From Chitinophagaceae bacterium (GTDB lineage: Bacteria > Bacteroidota > Bacteroidia > Chitinophagales > Chitinophagaceae): DNA of 64,000 nucleotides. The first letter of the stretch is position 1; each line of letters starts with the position of its first letter. A program made the translations under genes and the position numbers. This document shows, piece by piece, positions 18,710 through 50,078 of this stretch. Location: positions 547,463 to 611,462 of the forward strand of contig JADJDJ010000001.1 in assembly GCA_016702745.1 (NCBI GenBank), written 5' to 3'. A model generated the notes under the pieces. That model saw only the letters and a list, made by a program, of their open reading frames with translations, was not told where the DNA came from and ran no database searches.

Positions 18710-18722
18710 AGGATTTAAAAAA

Positions 18723-18825
18723 GCTTTAGCGAAGCGAGCTGATAAAAAGCTTTAGCGAAGCGAGCTGATAAAAAGCTTTAGCGAAGCGAGCTGATAAAAA
18801 GCTTTAGCGAAGCGAGCTGATAAAA
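18723..18825. repeat. 26-bp tandem repeat x4 (GCTTTAGCGAAGCGAGCTGATAAAAA) inside the tRNA-Tyr/tRNA-Gly spacer
   Basis: Unit starts at 18723, 18749, 18775 and 18801, all identical except the shortened A-run of the last unit. The unit shares AGCTTTAGCGAAG with the adjacent REP-like hairpin loop. Confidence 0.9.
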
Positions 18826-20600: not shown

Positions 20601-20662
20601 TTTCTTACCCCCCAGCCCCCTGAAGGGGGGCTGAAATTTTCCCCTTTAGGGGACAGGGGCTT

Positions 20663-21004
20663 ACGGGCGTAGTTCTCCCGATAGCTATCGGGAGGCAGAA
20701 TAGTTCTTTTTACGGGCGTAGTTCTCCCGATAACTATCGGGAGGCAGAATAGTTCTTTTTACGGGCGTAGTTCTCCCGATAACTATCGGGAGGCAGAATA
20801 GTTCTTTTACGGGCGTAGTTCTCCCGATAGCTATCGGGAGGCAGAATAGTTCTTTTTACGGGCGTAGTTCTCCCGATAACTATCGGGAGGCAGAATAGTT
20901 CTTTTTACGGGCGTAGTTCTCCCGATAGCTATCGGGAGGCAGAATAGTTCTTTTTACGGGCGTAGTTCTCCCGATAGCTATCGGGAGGCAGAATAGTTCT
21001 TTTT
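20663..21004 (+). repeat. Seven tandem 49-bp units derived from nt 1-26 of tRNA-Trp, each with an 18-nt palindrome
   Basis: Unit starts at 20663, 20712, 20761, 20809, 20858, 20907 and 20956. Unit = ACGGGCGTAGTTC + TCCCGATA(G/A)CTATCGGGA + GGCAGAATAG + TTCTTTTT. The next period begins at nt 1 of the real tRNA-Trp. Confidence 0.95.
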
Positions 21005-21075
21005 ACGGGCGTAGTTCAATGGCAGAATAGCGGTCTCCAAAACCGTTGATGGGAGTTCGAATCTCTCCGCCCGTG
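21005..21075 (+). tRNA. tRNA-Trp (anticodon CCA)
   Basis: Acceptor ACGGGCG/CGCCCGT, D arm GTTC-AATGGCA-GAAT, anticodon arm GCGGT-CTCCAAA-ACCGT, T arm GGGAG-TTCGAAT-CTCTC, discriminator G. Confidence 0.92.
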
Positions 21076-21124
21076 CAGATTAGTTAACTTGTTAATCAGT
21101 TGAAAAGTTGAAAAGGAAAACCCT

Positions 21125-35159: not shown

Positions 35160-35167
35160 TATATTTG
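35160..35167 (+). promoter_or_regulatory. Putative -7 promoter box (TAtaTTTG) for the skp/ompH-like gene
   Basis: Exact TAnnTTTG match 37 nt upstream of the ATG at 35204. Confidence 0.4.
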
Positions 35168-35203
35168 CGGGCCATTCGTTTTTACTTTGCAAAAAGAAGC
35201 CTG

Positions 35204-35809
35204 ATGAAAAATGGTATGATGATATGGAATGTGTTGCTGAGCCTGGTGGCCGGCTTCCTGTTGTTCAAACAACTGAGCCCCTCCGGTAAAGGATCAGGTA
35301 CGTCTAAAAAACAGGGCCATGATTCCGTGGGTAACGGATCAGATTTCCGGATGGCTTATTTTGAAATGGATTCTGTGGCGGCCAGTTTTGACCTGGTAAA
35401 AGAAGTAAAGACCGAACTGGCGAAAAAGGAAAATGCCATCAATGCAGAAGTGGAAAAAATGACCCGGACTTTCCAGCAACGTTATGGTGAATTACAGAAC
35501 AAGGCACAGGCAGGTACGATGAACCAGGGAGAAGTTGACGCCGCCAGTCAGGAGCTGAAGAAAATGGATGATGATATTAAGATCCGTAAATCACAGCTGG
35601 ATCAGGAATACAGTGACCTGATGGTTCGTCGCCAGACAGAAATCAAGAACAAAATTGAAGACTTCCTCAAAGATTATAACAAGACCCGTAAATACTCTTA
35701 TATCATTTCTTACGAACAGGGTCTTTTCTACTTCAGGGATTCAGCGTACAACATCACGGTAGATGTGGTAAAAGGGCTGAACCAGTTCTACAAAAAGAAG
35801 GATAAGTAA
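35204..35809 (+). CDS. OmpH/Skp-family periplasmic chaperone
   Basis: N-terminal TM/signal segment, then a long coiled-coil KE/Q-rich region, then the C-terminus YSYIISYEQGLFYFRDSAYNITVDVVKGLN typical of OmpH. Start trimmed to the ATG at 35204. Confidence 0.8.
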   Translation: MKNGMMIWNVLLSLVAGFLLFKQLSPSGKGSGTSKKQGHDSVGNGSDFRMAYFEMDSVAASFDLVKEVKTELAKKENAINAEVEKMTRTFQQRYGELQNKAQAGTMNQGEVDAASQELKKMDDDIKIRKSQLDQEYSDLMVRRQTEIKNKIEDFLKDYNKTRKYSYIISYEQGLFYFRDSAYNITVDVVKGLNQFYKKKDK

Positions 35810-35838: not shown

Positions 35839-36370
35839 GATTCACCGCGGAGAACAAGAGAACGCAGCGTCTTCGCCCGCAGGGCCCGCAGAGAAACTTA
35901 ACCGCTATGACGCGATGGCGCTAAGAGGGATTCACCGCCCGAAGGGTCCTTTGGACCGAGGTGCAGAGACCGCGGAGTTTTCGCCCGCAGGGCCCTGTGG
36001 GCAGAGAGACTTAACCGCTATGACGCGATGGCGCTAAGAGGGATTTACCGCCCGAAGGGTCCTTTGGACAGAGGTGCAGAGATCGCGGAGTTTTCGCCCG
36101 CAGGGCCTTGTGGGCAGAGATTTTTTGTCCAAAGGACTCTTCGAGCGTTCTTAGCGGGAAAAAATTTGTATTTCGAGCGAAGCGAGAAATCTTGTATTCT
36201 TTCACTTCCCCTGAACTGTCATCCCGAACATAGTGAGGGATCTTGTATTTCAGACTTCTTTGTGGCCTTAGTGTCTTTGCGGGAAAAATTCACCGCGAAG
36301 TACAAGAGAACGCGGAGTCTTAGAGAGGTATTTTTTGTCCAAAGGACTCTTCGAGCTTTCTTAGCGGGAA
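35839..36370. repeat. Repeat-rich non-coding island: 113-bp tandem duplication plus dispersed and inverted sub-repeats
   Basis: Units start at GATTCACCGCCCGAAGGGTCCTTTGGAC (35928) and GATTTACCGCCCGAAGGGTCCTTTGGAC (36041). TTTTTTGTCCAAAGGACTCTTCGAGC occurs at 36120 and 36331 and is inverted relative to GTCCTTTGGAC. A TCACCGCG(G)A(GA/AGT)ACAAGAGAACGC motif occurs at 35841 and 36289. Confidence 0.85.
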
Positions 36371-36436
36371 ACTGAGGAAACTTGCTGGAAACCGCTTTGC
36401 GTCCGCCGCTCCGTAGCGTCCGTTGCGGGAAATCTT

Positions 36437-48294: not shown

Positions 48295-48612
48295 CCCTGT
48301 GTTGGCAGGGCGCCATTAACCGTGATTATTTAACGCAGGGTTTTGGGATTTCGTATCAGCGCAGTAGTGGTTGTGGAAAAGTCTGAATAACGGGGCTAAT
48401 CAGACTGCAAATTTACTGAATAAGCGGGGAGGGCTCTTGTTAAATCGGGTTAGTTGTCCTATTTATTGAGTCAGATCATCAAACCCCTGATTTGGGAGCT
48501 CATACAGGGTCCATTTTGAACAAAAACCCGTGTTTGGATTTTCGAATACTTTCCGGCCTTCCCGGGAACCCTGTTAAAAACAAAAACATTTGGATGAAAA
48601 ACCTCCGGCTGT

Positions 48613-48620
48613 TATCTTTG
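48613..48620 (+). promoter_or_regulatory. Putative -7 promoter box (TAtcTTTG) for tRNA-Asp
   Basis: Exact TAnnTTTG match 45 nt upstream of tRNA-Asp nt 1. Confidence 0.5.
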
Positions 48621-48665
48621 CACTCCTTAAAAAAGCGACTGTTTACAGTGGCTGATAAGGTAAAC

Positions 48666-48739
48666 GGATCGGTAGTTCAGTTGGTTAGAATGCCGCCCTG
48701 TCACGGCGGAGGTCGCGGGTTCGAGTCCCGTCCGGTCCG
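48666..48739 (+). tRNA. tRNA-Asp (anticodon GUC)
   Basis: Acceptor GGATCGG/CCGGTCC (one G-U), D arm GTTCAGTTGGTTAGAAT, anticodon arm CCGCC-CTGTCAC-GGCGG, T arm GCGGG-TTCGAGT-CCCGT, discriminator G. Confidence 0.93.
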
Positions 48740-48744
48740 CAGAA

Positions 48745-48776
48745 AGCTCCACAGCAATGTGGGGCTTTTTGTTTTT
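48745..48776 (+). terminator. Rho-independent terminator after tRNA-Asp (repeated with every array unit)
   Basis: AGCTCCACA-GCAA-TGTGGGGCT forms a 9-bp stem with a GNRA loop, followed by TTTTTGTTTTT. The same hairpin recurs at about 48925, 49105, 49265, 49379 and 49903. Confidence 0.8.
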
Positions 48777-49480
48777 AAAGTAGTTCAGGAAGTATTGGTC
48801 GTACAGTAGGTGAAATTGCCGCACTGTCATCCCCACAGCATTGTGAGGACGGGTCCCGACGCTACGGTCGGGATGCCGACAAGCGAAGCTTCGTCGTCAT
48901 TCGAGTCCCGTCCGGTCCGCAGAAAGCTCCACAGCAATGTGGGGCTTTTTGTTTTTAAAGTAGTTCAGGAAGTATTGGTCGTACAGTAGGTGAAATTGCC
49001 GCACTGTCATCCCCACAGCATTGTGAGGACGGGTCCCGACGCTACGGTCGGGATGCCGACAAGCGAAGCTTCGTCGTCATTCGAGTCCCGTCCGGTCCGC
49101 AGAAAGCTCCACAGCAATGTGGGGCTTTTTGTTTTTAGTAGATCATTTGGTTAGAATGCCGCCCTGTCATCCCCACAGTATTGTGGGGACGGGTCCCGAC
49201 GCTACGGTCGGGATGCCGACAAGCGAAGCTTCGTCGTCATTCGAGTCCCGTCCGGTCCGCAAAAAGCTCCACAGCAATGTGGGGCTTTTGTTTTTAGTAG
49301 ATCATTTGGTTAGAATGCCGCCCTGTCATCCCCACAGCATTGTGGGGACGGTGTTCGAGTCCCGTCCGGTCCGCAGAAAGCTCCACAGCAATGTGGGGCT
49401 TTTTGTTTTTAGTAGATCATTTGGTTAGAATGCCGCCCTGTCATCCCCACAGTATTGTGGGGACGGTGTTCGAGTCCCGT
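48777..49480 (+). repeat. Array of five tRNA-Asp-derived partial copies (180, 180, 159, 115 and 70 nt), each carrying inserted hairpin modules
   Basis: U1 (48777-48956) and U2 (48957-49136) are 180/180 identical. U3 is 49137-49295, U4 is 49296-49410, and U5 is 49411-49480 (truncated after TTCGAGTCCCGT). All keep D-arm/anticodon-5' sequence and U1-U4 keep the 3' 22 nt TTCGAGTCCCGTCCGGTCCGCA, but none has the 5' acceptor strand or the 3' anticodon-stem strand. Confidence 0.92.
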
Positions 49481-49523
49481 ACGATTTTGATGAAGAATTG
49501 AGAAATCTTTGATTTTTGTATGG

Positions 49524-49799
49524 ATGGCTTATTATGTGTATATCATCCAGAGTGCAAAAGATATGAGTTATTATAAAGGGTACTCTTGTGATCCTGTTAT
49601 CCGATTACAACAGCACAATAACAGGGAATCATCTTATACATCTGGAAAATGCCCTTGGAAACTCGTTTATGTGGAAGAATTGGGTTCGAAAAAAGAAGCG
49701 TTGATCCGGGAAAAAAATCTAAAGAAAGCTACAAGGGAACGAATTGAAGCGTTAATTAATCACCCTAAAAACATAGTGGAGCGTTTTCTAGGGAATTGA
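49524..49799 (+). CDS. Small GIY-YIG nuclease-superfamily protein (COG2827/UPF0213-like, 91 aa)
   Basis: MAYYVYIIQS...SYYKGYS (GIY...YIG), RLQQHN (conserved Arg) and KKEALIREKNLKK (conserved Glu). Embedded between tRNA-Asp-derived units U5 and U6. Confidence 0.85.
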   Translation: MAYYVYIIQSAKDMSYYKGYSCDPVIRLQQHNNRESSYTSGKCPWKLVYVEELGSKKEALIREKNLKKATRERIEALINHPKNIVERFLGN

Positions 49800-49831
49800 A
49801 GAGTTTAACTCACGGTTCATTTTTCCAAAAT

Positions 49832-49934
49832 GGGATTAATTGCCGCCCTGTCATCCCCACAGCTTTGTGGGGACGGGTTCGAGTCCCGTCCGGTCCGCAG
49901 GAAGCTCCACAGCAATGTGGGGCTTTTTGTTTTT
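49832..49934 (+). repeat. Sixth tRNA-Asp-derived unit (U6) downstream of the GIY-YIG gene
   Basis: GGGATTAATTGCCGCCCTGTCA + TCCCCACAGCTTTGTGGGGA + CGGGTTCGAGTCCCGTCCGGTCCGCA + terminator hairpin. The T arm ACGGG/CCCGT is intact here. Confidence 0.9.
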
Positions 49935-50078
49935 AGAGAATCTCCTGTTTAAAATGTTGCATCTCAGAAAAAAGTGATTAAGCAACGATAACCGCTTTTT
50001 GTCCCTGATTATCAATTATTAGCCCCTAAAACCGCTATTATCATATAATCCTTAATTTAGCCCCTCATTTTTAAGCCT

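Follow-up and report, generated by a model that had tools for sequence, protein, structure and literature searches.

A GIY-YIG nuclease gene among hairpin-bearing partial tRNA-Asp copies in Bacteroidota: a probable tRNA-linked version of the Ssn/hairpin-repeat system

What surrounds an intact tRNA-Asp gene with fragments of itself and sets a small nuclease gene among them? In the 64,000-nt stretch of Chitinophagaceae DNA analysed here (the window), five partial copies of tRNA-Asp (U1-U5) come directly after an intact tRNA-Asp(GUC), then a 91-aa GIY-YIG gene and a sixth partial copy, U6 (Table 1). The intact gene was called as tRNA-Asp(GTC) by ARAGORN at 48666-48740 and by Rfam at 48666-48739. 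An earlier note, made from the letters of the window, had described the array and read it as the work of a homing nuclease. Its description of the repeats was reproduced almost entirely. An exact-pattern search found the 22-mer TTCGAGTCCCGTCCGGTCCGCA at 48720, 48900, 49080, 49240, 49354 and 49878, with an additional match to its truncated 12-mer copy at 49469. The terminator hairpin AGCTCCACAGCAATGTGGGGCT stands behind all six full 22-mers (repeated as exact matches at 48925, 49105, 49265, 49379 and 49903), and a terminator scan picked up three of these copies. The inner hairpin TCCCCACAG[CT][AT]TTGTG[GA]GGA starts at 48830, 49010, 49170, 49329, 49444 and 49854, the sequence GTAGATCATTTGGTTAGAATGCCGCCCTGTCA recurs at 49138, 49297 and 49412, and the 5' acceptor strand (GGATCGGTAG) was found only once, within the intact tRNA. 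The claim that every unit keeps the D-arm was upheld for U3-U5 but not for U1 and U2, where unrelated sequence interrupts it, nor for U6, which starts at about tRNA position 23.

Table 1. Features of the tRNA-Asp and tRNA-Trp loci (window coordinates)
Feature	Position	Strand	Basis
7.3 tandem 49-bp units directly 5' of intact tRNA-Trp (21005-21076)	20661..21017	+	hairpin scan, Tandem Repeats Finder
Putative Bacteroidota -7 promoter box TATCTTTG, 5' of tRNA-Asp	48613..48620	+	sequence reading; presumed function
Intact tRNA-Asp(GUC)	48666..48740	+	ARAGORN; Rfam tRNA 68.1 bits
Terminator hairpin AGCTCCACAGCAATGTGGGGCT and T-run	48745..48776	+	exact matches; terminator scan; DNA fold
U1: disrupted D-arm, anticodon 5' strand and loop (GCCGCACTGTCA), hairpin A 48830-48849 (one mismatch), TCCC..GGGA hairpin 48854-48873, third hairpin, T-loop, 3' acceptor strand, terminator	48777..48956	+	
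U2: identical to U1 (180/180); hairpins 49010-49029 and 49034-49053	48957..49136	+	Tandem Repeats Finder period 180, 100% matches
U3: tRNA ~8-37, hairpin A 49170-49189, second hairpin 49194-49213, T-loop, 3' end, terminator	49137..49295	+	
U4, minimal unit: tRNA 8-37, hairpin A 49329-49348, CGGTG, T-loop, 3' end, terminator	49296..49410	+	
U5, truncated after TTCGAGTCCCGT; hairpin A 49444-49463; putative upstream recognition-type hairpin of the nuclease gene	49411..49480	+	
43-bp lineage-specific leader of the nuclease gene; possible weak promoter (TTTG ... AATCTTTG)	49481..49523	+	sequence reading
91-aa single-domain GIY-YIG nuclease gene (Ssn-like)	49524..49799	+	Pfam PF01541, E 3e-14
U6: tRNA ~23-37, hairpin A 49854-49873, CGGG, T-arm, 3' acceptor strand, terminator	49832..49934	+	

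In every partial copy the 20-nt hairpin substitutes tRNA positions 38-49, and U1-U3 carry two extra hairpins (TCCCGACGCTACGGTCGGGA and GACAAGCGAAGCTTCGTCGTC) between it and the T-loop. U4 gave a DNA fold z-score of -3.9 with both of its hairpins predicted. The arrays detected by Tandem Repeats Finder repeat every 180, 160 and 115 bp (matches of 96-100%, scores 459-836), a degree of repetition far beyond chance. Promoters of Bacteroidota have the -7 consensus TAnnTTTG, and a box of the form ..TATCTTTGC.. also lies ahead of the tRNA or the arrays in other loci (L060, L080, L089 and L096-L099; L numbers denote loci). A truncated U5-type unit precedes the nuclease gene in all sister strains, and the leader between them, with its putative weak promoter, is kept in L004, L007 and L011. 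U6, the probable downstream recognition-type hairpin, resembles the pseudo-tRNA found 3' of the gene in the large majority of the related loci that we read.

The array is not an assembly artefact, because ten independent sister-strain assemblies share its layout with different unit numbers, and it does not collapse in them. Strains encoding the same, 95%-identical protein differ in array length, from 1 to 9 units: the sister strains have 1, 2, 3 or 9 units between tRNA and gene and the window has 5. The name of the contig in the 9-unit assembly (tig...) suggests that it was built from long reads. The minimal form (L004) consists of tRNA, truncated hairpin unit, gene and hairpin unit; this hairpin-gene-hairpin order is the layout published for Ssn nucleases (see below). 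In L034 the nuclease gene itself is arrayed in up to 5 copies with a period of 365 bp. Plain homologous recombination between direct repeats would alter copy number without a nuclease.

Are the partial copies tRNAs or other known RNAs? Searches with ARAGORN and with Rfam, at permissive and gathering thresholds, returned the intact tRNA only, and none of the units was classed as a tRNA by either program (Rfam at gathering score). The units do not score as cloverleaves and lack the 5' acceptor strand, in agreement with the earlier note. Sub-threshold Rfam matches to BjrC68, mascRNA and SpF41 merely mirror the terminator and T-arm, and the 85-nt tRNAs called by ARAGORN in L058 and L077 have mispaired anticodon stems.

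The nuclease gene was correctly assigned to the GIY-YIG family. The Pfam domain spans residues 3-72 of the protein and no further family was matched, which does not fit the Seg-type homing endonuclease that the earlier note had proposed: the protein has a single domain without a DNA-binding domain, and its nearest characterised relatives are the Ssn proteins. We found 178 homologues of 85-100 aa (E <= 1e-5), and an alignment of 30 sequences contains 22 invariant residues, including Y17, R27, H31, E51, E63 and N65, with Y6 nearly invariant (at least 90%). Ssn nucleases form a family of hairpin-directed, site-specific single-stranded-DNA nucleases, exemplified by SsnA, which acts with NTS/dRS3 in Neisseria, and by enzymes that act elsewhere with the Ssn-related motif, SRM (Chenal et al., Nat Commun 2025, PMC11893778). 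Our comparison set (A2) consisted of genes flanked by SRM-matching motifs (L090-L093), and these are considered genuine Ssn genes because the motifs match the published SRM search pattern (12 copies in L090, canonical CGTCATTCCCGCGAAGGCGGGAATCCAG in L091-L093). The nuclease family aligned to these proteins with an hhalign probability of 97.6% (E 4.5e-12) at about 30% identity, and Y6, Y17 and E63 of the window nuclease align with their Y7, Y18 and E65. The nuclease activity of SsnA is abolished by mutation at Y6, Y17 or E64 (PMC11893778). The Bacteroidota family scores about 43 bits to Ssn-type and 42-50 bits to UPF0213, whereas Ssn-type proteins score 34 bits to the Bacteroidota family against 16-25 bits to UPF0213. 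The best matches among solved structures were the UPF0213 proteins 1zg2 and 1ywl (PDB; E 2.5e-12 and 5.8e-10), with SLX1 also among them; UPF0213/YhbQ/YazA and SLX1 share the size of the nuclease and the motif HN.G...YT...P..LVY. NCBIfam and PADLOC returned no named family for it, viral contigs contained no relative, so that a phage origin is unsupported, and the two matches in the plasmid database, both Firmicutes yazA-type genes, were of no help in linking the protein to Ssn. On sequence evidence, the nuclease is homologous to the Ssn family and a candidate member of clade cd10448, with UPF0213 as close as Ssn-type proteins by HMM score.

The site bound by an Ssn nuclease is a hairpin repeat, cleavage falls a few nucleotides to its 5' side, and ssn genes typically sit between such repeats (PMC11893778). 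The 20-nt hairpin of the tRNA-Asp units is therefore most likely the recognition element of the enzyme and not the passive repair scar that it was first taken for. Several features are shared with Ssn systems. The GIY-YIG protein has one domain, is about 90-95 aa long and contains identical catalytic residues; the hairpin repeats that flank the gene are of the 20-nt class, and each has TCCC...GGGA as its core, a 5' flank of the GTCA type and a 3' C; and tandem hairpin arrays stand beside the gene, as at the canonical ssn gene in L090. The NTS repeat recognised by SsnA reads ..GTCAT-TCCC..GGGA-ATC, and the tRNA-Asp units read ..GTCA-TCCC..GGGA-C; for SsnA, binding depends on the C after the palindrome more than on any other base, and cleavage is decided by the 3 nt upstream of the hairpin (PMC11893778). 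In the tRNA-Asp units, GTCA is the anticodon loop, G34-U35-C36-A37. Among 111 unique hairpin contexts, C directly follows the palindrome in 95 and GTCA directly precedes it in 61. Hairpins in pseudo-tRNA-Ser, -Trp, -Arg and -Leu lack the GTCA flank, and this flank may be a by-product of where the hairpin sits in tRNA-Asp, namely in the anticodon loop.

The published SRM search pattern, HGTCWYN(0-2)YYVSBRHN(0-5)WNVSBRGN(0-2)RNCYNB (PMC11893778), matched the control loci L090-L093 but none of the 79 Bacteroidota loci and nothing in the array. The mismatch lies in the stem, where A or T stands in place of the required G or C; the flanks (GTCA before, C after) are retained. Since the strict pattern had no matches, flank statistics were compared instead. 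Nearly all of the 47 distinct inserts between TGTCA and GGTTCGA, defined by position alone and not by the hairpin scan, form hairpins, and their pairing at stem pairs 5, 7 and 8 exceeded that of every one of 2000 shuffles. On the sense strand, type-B stems contain an A.C mismatch. Both orientations of the loop are found among the hairpins, some of which are antisense to the tRNA (L110). In a metagenome scan, 36 of the 61 matches to hairpin A were preceded by [CTA]TGTCA, the tRNA-Asp anticodon-loop context, and 25 were not. As in Ssn systems, the enzyme varies together with its hairpin. Identity to the window protein is 65-76% for proteins from loci that share the hairpin class of the window and 57-64% for those from other classes (Mann-Whitney p 1e-4); the hosts of the two groups are at matched distance by AccA (median identities 78.1% and 78.8%), but the comparison is not phylogenetically independent. 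Across all pairs of proteins the contrast between hairpin classes is weak and confounded by phylogeny (63.5% vs 57.4%).

The link between the nuclease gene and tRNA genes, suspected in the earlier note, was borne out across related loci. An intact tRNA lies directly upstream of the gene, at 27-98 nt, in 49 of the 65 testable loci (79 related loci in total); 48 of these tRNAs are tRNA-Asp and one is tRNA-Ser, and Asp(GTC) makes up 61 of the 63 tRNAs detected in the testable loci, counts that are not phylogenetically independent. Many nuclease homologues lie on contigs of about 500-1000 bp. The linkage spans many genera of Chitinophagales and Sphingobacteriales as well as Saprospiraceae. By reading, the large majority of the 79 loci have a pseudo-tRNA with a hairpin downstream of the gene, and hairpins flank the gene on both sides in the window and all sister strains. 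The partial copies derive from the local tRNA and change with it: L085 has a pseudo-tRNA-Ser beside tRNA-Ser, and the partial copy in L081/L082 carries Mucilaginibacter acceptor and T-loop variants. In most loci the gene begins right behind the tRNA terminator with no space for its own promoter, and the hairpins would therefore be transcribed. In L026, L030, L081 and L087 only the last 13-17 nt of the tRNA lie upstream of the gene; these copies were considered as evidence of transposition and set aside, since insertion into the upstream tRNA 3' end explains them better. None of the three outcomes that the earlier note had named as counting against its reading (nuclease genes at unrelated loci free of tRNA fragments, collapse of the array, units scoring as functional tRNAs) was encountered.

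Both empty and occupied versions of one tRNA-Asp locus were found. In the close relatives L096-L098, the tRNA-Asp is followed by a plain terminator, and L099, whose flanks are about 90-92% identical, contains a 459-bp insert framed by a 15-bp direct repeat (tRNA positions 1-15). Related species thus either have or lack the cassette, and its junctions fall within tRNA sequence. L031 and L032, initially counted as two independent loci of one genome, are allelic copies of one locus and are therefore uninformative on transposition.

Partial tRNA copies disrupted by hairpins are not limited to tRNA-Asp. Each 49-bp unit 5' of tRNA-Trp in the window copies a 5' portion of tRNA-Trp, with TCCCGATA(G/A)CTATCGGGA, a hairpin, in place of the D-loop (Tandem Repeats Finder score 686-700, DNA fold z-score -4.6), and similar arrays flank tRNA-Arg, tRNA-Leu and tRNA-Ser outside the window. 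The part replaced differs: positions 38-49, the T-arm or the D-arm of tRNA-Asp, positions 27-34 of tRNA-Ser, the D-loop or anticodon arm of tRNA-Trp, positions 28-34 of tRNA-Arg and the D-loop of tRNA-Leu; the hairpin is also found within terminators. The make-up of the units varies greatly between genera, and the hairpin and its flanks alone are retained. The system departs from known Ssn systems in several respects: identity to the comparison set is low, UPF0213 is equally close and the SRM pattern is unmatched; the gene is almost always directly 3' of tRNA-Asp, usually without a promoter of its own; the hairpins are embedded in partial copies of the local tRNA; and those of the window are restricted to two tRNA loci and not dispersed around virulence-type genes.

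Our results suggest that the locus is probably a tRNA-Asp-linked version of the Ssn/hairpin-repeat system, for which we propose the following biochemistry and mode of spread. The TCCC...GGGA hairpins of the pseudo-tRNA units would be the recognition sites of the nuclease, oriented by the 5' GTCA (the copied anticodon loop) and the C immediately 3'. The enzyme would nick the tRNA-sense strand in the pseudo-anticodon stem whenever the DNA is single-stranded, be it through transcription from the strong tRNA promoter, through replication or as incoming DNA. Unequal recombination, driven by breaks between direct repeats of 60-180 bp (tRNA 3' end and terminator), would expand and contract the array. 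The tRNA-derived flanks would offer universally conserved homology, such that the cassette could be gained by recombination inside a tRNA gene, always with one intact tRNA kept.

The homing model holds that the enzyme makes a double-strand break in a cassette-free tRNA-Asp and that repair copies in the cassette and stacks pseudo-tRNA scars. Free-standing GIY-YIG homing endonucleases include the Seg proteins of phage T4 and mobile ORFs of fungal mitochondria that carry a replacement gene end. Like them, our nuclease gene lies beside an essential conserved gene, its presence varies among relatives and part of the target is duplicated, such that function is kept and a pseudo-copy is left. The cassette is bracketed by tRNA-Asp sequence on both sides, with the hairpin exactly between a left arm that runs to position 37 and a right arm that runs from position 50; the presence/absence polymorphism with a target-bounded insert, the relatedness of the proteins, which does not follow that of their hosts, and the switch of target to tRNA-Ser in L085 are also as expected of homing. 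Yet homing endonucleases have DNA-binding domains, cut double-stranded DNA and lack cognate hairpin repeats and tandem arrays, and the intact tRNA adjoining the gene would stay a target. In Pedobacter agri (L072) a second tRNA-Asp about 300 bp downstream of the cassette pseudo-tRNA is unoccupied, phage homologues did not appear in viral contigs and the conserved, covarying hairpin is left unexplained. A separate DNA-binding domain, which GIY-YIG homing enzymes need, is absent from the 91-aa protein, a catalytic domain only, and characterised Ssn relatives did not cut double-stranded DNA (PMC11893778). Homing is unlikely. We regard as quite unlikely a related model that overlaps with the Ssn reading and adds true transposition: small mobile palindromes akin to REP/RAYT, mobilised by the nuclease, would prefer the loops of spare tRNA copies, and the arrays would record insertions. 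The same hairpin replaces different parts of different tRNAs and enters terminators, it is inserted in either orientation, and metagenome matches fall both inside and outside the anticodon-loop context. The authors of the Ssn study themselves draw an analogy with insertion sequences and REP/RAYT (PMC11893778). As in REP/RAYT and IS200/IS605, a small nuclease gene has short palindromes of its own on its flanks; these would be recognised in single-stranded form, as hairpins next to a short 5' guide or target motif, and they multiply and cluster. However, the fold of those enzymes is HUH/Y1 and not GIY-YIG, and REPs are dispersed genome-wide and not inside tRNA fragments. Here tRNA sequence is replaced rather than cleanly interrupted, target duplications and defined ends are not visible, and gene conversion between related units could equally spread the hairpins. 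GIY-YIG enzymes hydrolyse DNA, and none is known to rejoin it.

The units could also be functional RNAs, namely tRNA-like decoys, processing signals or a structured 3' UTR of the nuclease mRNA. Their strand is the transcribed one, downstream of a strong tRNA promoter, in most loci they would be co-transcribed with a gene that has no promoter space, and they show a weak, sub-threshold Rfam likeness to mascRNA (23.5 bits). Nevertheless, the absence of the 5' acceptor strand, the failure of any unit to reach gathering score, the very different composition of units among genera beyond hairpin and flanks, the occurrence of hairpins in either orientation, even antisense to the tRNA, and the lack of RNA binding by the characterised relative (PMC11893778) make this very unlikely. 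Decayed attachment scars of integrase-type islands at the tRNA-Asp 3' end, with the nuclease as leftover cargo, are less credible still. Direct repeats of a tRNA 3' end beside one intact tRNA are the classic signature of such islands, and the loci with only the last 13-17 nt of the tRNA look as if an island had split them. But, as the earlier note had stated, the flanks hold no integrase, and YkuD, accA and dapA are the neighbours in all sister strains. The units also hold D-arm and anticodon-loop sequence, the repeats thus including 5' and middle parts of the tRNA, arrays made of 5' fragments lie upstream of tRNAs too, the period is 115-180 bp and not kilobases, and the layout is conserved across orders. 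The integrase-island explanation is highly improbable and largely refuted.

We return to the Ssn reading. The pairing of enzyme and hairpin was already described in 2025, so that the earlier statement that no bacterial element of this form had been described does not stand for the nuclease and hairpin-repeat layout; it does stand for the tight link to tRNA genes and the pseudo-tRNA arrays, which are not in that paper (0 occurrences of 'tRNA' in the main text of PMC11893778). Beyond it, our literature search did not find a tRNA-linked GIY-YIG or Ssn element. A more tentative proposal is that nuclease and hairpins jointly make up a kind of selfish element not recognised before, one that is specialised on tRNA genes. 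The nuclease would nick single-stranded tRNA-gene DNA beside a hairpin, and repair would copy tRNA fragments that carry the hairpin, either alone or along with the nuclease gene, to a place in or next to the tRNA, the universally conserved tRNA sequence acting as portable homology arms. If true, this would account for the arrays at tRNA-Asp, -Ser, -Trp, -Arg and -Leu across Bacteroidota and would offer a first view of how Ssn-type hairpin repeats multiply.

Repeat-rich, variable tRNA loci of this kind will break short-read assemblies and can yield spurious tRNA calls. Moreover, an entire branch of nuclease-hairpin pairs, at the level of a phylum, escapes the published SRM pattern. It was only in 2025 that Ssn nucleases were characterised (PMC11893778). 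In the Bacteroidota lineage every hairpin sits inside a recognisable tRNA fragment, and each event has readable breakpoints in the tRNA positions replaced, the joins between units and the differences between empty and occupied sites. Since copy number differs among strains that share one protein 95% identical to that of the window, both the origin and the dynamics of these repeats are experimentally accessible.

An exact-pattern search of the window reproduced the coordinates that the earlier note had given for the 22-nt tRNA 3' end (six copies and one truncated copy), for the six copies of the terminator hairpin, for the six inner 20-nt hairpins and for the three copies of the 32-nt D-arm/anticodon segment. 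U1 and U2, the first two of the six partial tRNA-Asp copies (U1-U6), are identical in sequence, as had been claimed. The D-arm was said to be kept in every unit; this is the case for U3-U5, and it is not intact elsewhere. We also correct the start of U6, which lies at about tRNA position 23, and add two hairpins within U1-U3, one of which belongs to the TCCC...GGGA class. The array has periods of 180, 160 and 115 bp with 96-100% identity (Tandem Repeats Finder), and neither ARAGORN nor Rfam called any of the units U1-U6 as a tRNA. The tRNA-Asp terminator of the window (48745-48766 and copies) has its core, CCACAGCAATGTGGGG, in common with the recognition-type hairpin CCCCACAGCATTGTGGGG. The sequence CACAGCAATGTG is shared by the tRNA-Asp terminators of several other Chitinophagaceae (loci L012, L017, L023 and L076), and a hairpin is located within a terminator in the related locus L081. 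One of these two structures may be derived from the other.

Features and tandem repeats of the window with their coordinates
Feature	Position	Details
26-bp repeat	18718-18825	unit AAAAAGCTTTAGCGAAGCGAGCTGAT, 4.2 copies, 100% identity, between tRNA-Tyr and tRNA-Gly
49-bp repeat	20661-21017	7.3 tandem units, directly upstream of intact tRNA-Trp(CCA)
113-bp repeat	35888-36120	G+C-rich, tandem, 2.1 copies, 95% identity
tRNA-Asp(GUC)	48666-48740	single call by ARAGORN and Rfam
GIY-YIG domain protein ORF	49524-49799	

The tRNA-Asp array is real and variable, and it is not peculiar to the window. Protein P0001, which shares 95% identity with the nuclease of the window, is encoded on at least 24 public contigs, and ten of these were fetched. 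Nine of the ten share the same neighbourhood: a YkuD-like gene, tRNA-Asp, the array, the nuclease gene and accA. The tRNA and the gene are separated by 1 unit in contig L004, 2 in L007, 3 in L001 and others, 5 in the window and 9 in L002, whose name (tig...) suggests a long-read assembly. The minimal arrangement consists of one truncated hairpin unit, the gene and one complete hairpin unit. Contig L005 encodes P0001 next to the same array and presents a 492-aa gene and a response regulator on the right-hand side instead of accA; the strain may be rearranged or the assembly chimeric.

The tie between the nuclease gene and tRNA-Asp is general rather than specific to the window. Scanning one genome per species yielded 79 related loci distributed across many genera of Chitinophagales and Sphingobacteriales, in addition to Saprospiraceae and one Flavobacteriales genome bin. 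Adjacency was counted where 200 nt or more of sequence preceded the gene (65 loci): an intact tRNA on the same strand ends 27-98 nt upstream in 49 of them, most commonly at 35-38 nt, and a tRNA is found within 1.5 kb upstream in 56. Across the 402 kb of the loci, 61 of the 63 tRNAs are Asp(GTC); in locus L085, a tRNA-Ser(GCT) occupies the position otherwise held by tRNA-Asp. The usual order is tRNA, terminator, T-run, ATG, gene, pseudo-tRNA and terminator, with no space for a promoter between the T-run and the nuclease ATG, and the stop codon of the nuclease is often the TAG within the D-loop sequence GGTTAGAAT. The downstream pseudo-tRNA is composed of positions ~20-37 of the local tRNA, the hairpin, CGGG, the T-loop and the 3' acceptor strand. 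It mirrors variants of the local tRNA, such as the acceptor CCATTCC and T-loop TTCGAAT of Mucilaginibacter and the pseudo-tRNA-Ser of L085. Two to five tandem copies of the gene were found in 20 loci. Species that carry the gene and have a complete genome include Terrimonas rubra, Danxiaibacter flavus, Sediminibacterium roseum, Paraflavitalea soli, Pedobacter agri and Mucilaginibacter ginkgonis.

Two 85-nt 'tRNA-Asp' calls made by ARAGORN (L058, 3259-3343; L077, 2782-2866) correspond to hairpin-bearing pseudo-tRNAs with mispaired anticodon stems, and such sequences probably give rise to erroneous tRNA annotations in the genomes concerned. Bacteroidota-type tRNA-Asp and nuclease loci were also found in bins named Brevundimonas vancanneytii, Citrobacter freundii and Bosea thiooxidans (L014, L062 and L063). 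The accA of L014 resembles that of the Sediminibacterium loci, and its product is 78% identical to the AccA of the window. These three bins are probably mislabelled or contaminated.

The conserved element is the hairpin. We delimited the hairpin inserts by position alone, between TGTCA and GGTTCGA, which gave 47 distinct sequences, nearly all of them with a 7-8-bp stem whose base is TCCC...GGGA. Stem pairs 5, 7 and 8 have undergone concerted base changes (observed pairing 34/41, 41/41 and 40/41), a level of pairing matched by none of 2000 shuffles, and the predicted ssDNA folds have z-scores of -3.5 to -4.6. Among 111 unique contexts, a C lies immediately 3' of the palindrome in 95 and GTCA immediately 5' in 61. 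This GTCA of the pseudo-tRNA is the tRNA-Asp anticodon G34-U35-C36 followed by A37.

Hairpins and repeats are not confined to tRNA-Asp. Each 49-bp unit of the tRNA-Trp array consists of a tRNA-Trp 5' fragment whose D-loop is replaced by the TCCC..GGGA hairpin TCCCGATA(G/A)CTATCGGGA; no nuclease gene adjoins this array, and the 64-kb window holds only one GIY-YIG gene. Many related loci present arrays upstream of tRNA-Asp, with units made of a leader, tRNA positions 1-37, the hairpin and positions 50 to ~63. Hairpin A, the 20-nt hairpin that replaces tRNA positions 38-49 in the units of the window, had 61 matches in a metagenome scan, and 36 of them carry the 5' flank [CTA]TGTCA, i.e., the anticodon-loop context of tRNA-Asp. 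The 25 others include terminator-like long palindromes, pseudo-tRNA arrays of tRNA-Arg(CCG), tRNA-Leu(TAG) (antisense) and tRNA-Trp, and a 135-bp tandem array with neither a tRNA nor a nuclease gene on its contig (contigs L105, L110, L101 and L111/L116). The 26-bp repeat is the third tRNA-locus repeat array of the window and lies outside the TCCC..GGGA class. The 113-bp repeat, which had no Rfam match at gathering score, starts in the gap that follows ORF 35165-35809 and extends over the beginning of ORF 36028-36375.

The accA/tRNA-Asp neighbourhood is kept across genera. Loci L096-L098, whose AccA is 89-90% identical to that of the window, present tRNA-Asp with a plain terminator and neither a nuclease gene nor a hairpin. 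The flanks of locus L099 are ~90-92% identical to those of L097 and L098, and it carries a 459-bp insert between 15-bp direct repeats of tRNA positions 1-15. The insert encodes an 87-aa nuclease and also includes a hairpin and a pseudo-tRNA built of positions 1-37, a hairpin and positions 50-66; all of it lies upstream of the intact tRNA, so the cassette can occupy either side of the tRNA. The cassette junctions fall within the tRNA, an intact copy of which is retained in every case, as expected from acquisition by recombination within tRNA homology. The tRNA-Asp points away from accA in L096-L098 and toward accA in the window lineage (48300-50078); the tRNA segment is inverted between these lineages.

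These features resemble those of Ssn, single-domain GIY-YIG proteins of ~94 aa that bind hairpin repeats in ssDNA form only and cut a few nt upstream (Chenal et al. 2025, PMC11893778). The repeats are the NTS/dRS3 of Neisseria (core ATTCCC-N8-GGGAAT), named SRM elsewhere; binding depends above all on the C that follows the palindrome, the three upstream bases are critical to cleavage, and genes are usually arranged as repeat-ssn-repeat (PMC11893778). The main text of that study mentions neither tRNA nor Bacteroidota. The Ssn/NTS consensus CGTCAT-TCCC...GGGA-ATC aligns with GTCA-TCCC...GGGA-C of the window system, and the native tRNA-Asp loop TGTCAC agrees with HGTCWY, the opening six positions of the search pattern given in that study. 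The comparison set was a large family of proteobacterial-type proteins (95 aa), confirmed as true Ssn by SRMs of the published pattern next to the genes (L090, 12 in tandem; L091-L093, canonical NTS). Profile-profile comparison aligned the Bacteroidota family with this set (probability 97.6%, E 4.5e-12, 30% identity), including the catalytic residues (two Tyr and one Glu); the scores of the Bacteroidota family against structurally solved UPF0213 proteins were equally good. The strict SRM pattern matched 0 of the 79 Bacteroidota loci because their stems are A/T-richer. By every sequence criterion applied, the window system works like Ssn; its protein family may formally belong either to the Ssn clade or to that of UPF0213. 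In L090 (Parashewanella spongiae), ssn lies between two flagellin genes amid the SRM repeats, spaced by ~100-140 bp, which shows that tandem hairpin arrays belong to canonical Ssn loci too. In the Nitrosomonas-type contigs L091-L093, canonical ssn and its NTS-type repeat are located between hsdR and hsdM of a type I restriction-modification operon.

Enzyme and hairpin were compared in two sets of loci matched for the distance of their hosts from the window (median AccA identity 78.1% and 78.8%). Where the adjacent hairpin is of the window's class (stem CACA), the nuclease shares 65-76% identity with that of the window, and where it is of another class 57-64%, two fully separate groups (Mann-Whitney p 1e-4, samples not phylogenetically independent). 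The most divergent proteins belong to the three AccA-closest hosts (85-88%). Within the limits of such non-independent samples, this fits putative cognate enzyme-hairpin pairs that are exchanged by horizontal transfer while the locus itself is conserved.

The earlier note had proposed a Seg-like GIY-YIG homing nuclease at tRNA-Asp, with the pseudo-tRNA units as repair scars. This is not the best filing. The nuclease is an intact-looking, strongly conserved single-domain protein, the hairpins are of the cognate type with the right flanks, direct repeats measure 60-180 bp, copy number is polymorphic, and the insertion polymorphism has its junctions inside the tRNA. By analogy with Ssn (PMC11893778), the protein would bind the ssDNA hairpin and nick the tRNA-sense strand within the pseudo-anticodon stem, a few nt to the 5' side of the hairpin. 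The locus would be recombinogenic through ssDNA exposure during heavy tRNA transcription (the sense strand being the non-template strand), at replication forks or in incoming DNA. Such ssDNA would make the arrays grow and shrink and would promote gene conversion among the tRNA-derived units, and the tRNA-derived flanks would provide portable homology. Copy number could also change without the nuclease, by plain recombination between direct repeats. The locus is genuine and is best filed as a tRNA-linked form of the Ssn/hairpin-repeat system described in 2025 rather than as an entirely new type of element. The system is of interest as a readable record of how hairpin repeats arise, and the finding widens the Ssn/hairpin system to a phylum-level branch missed by the published motif.
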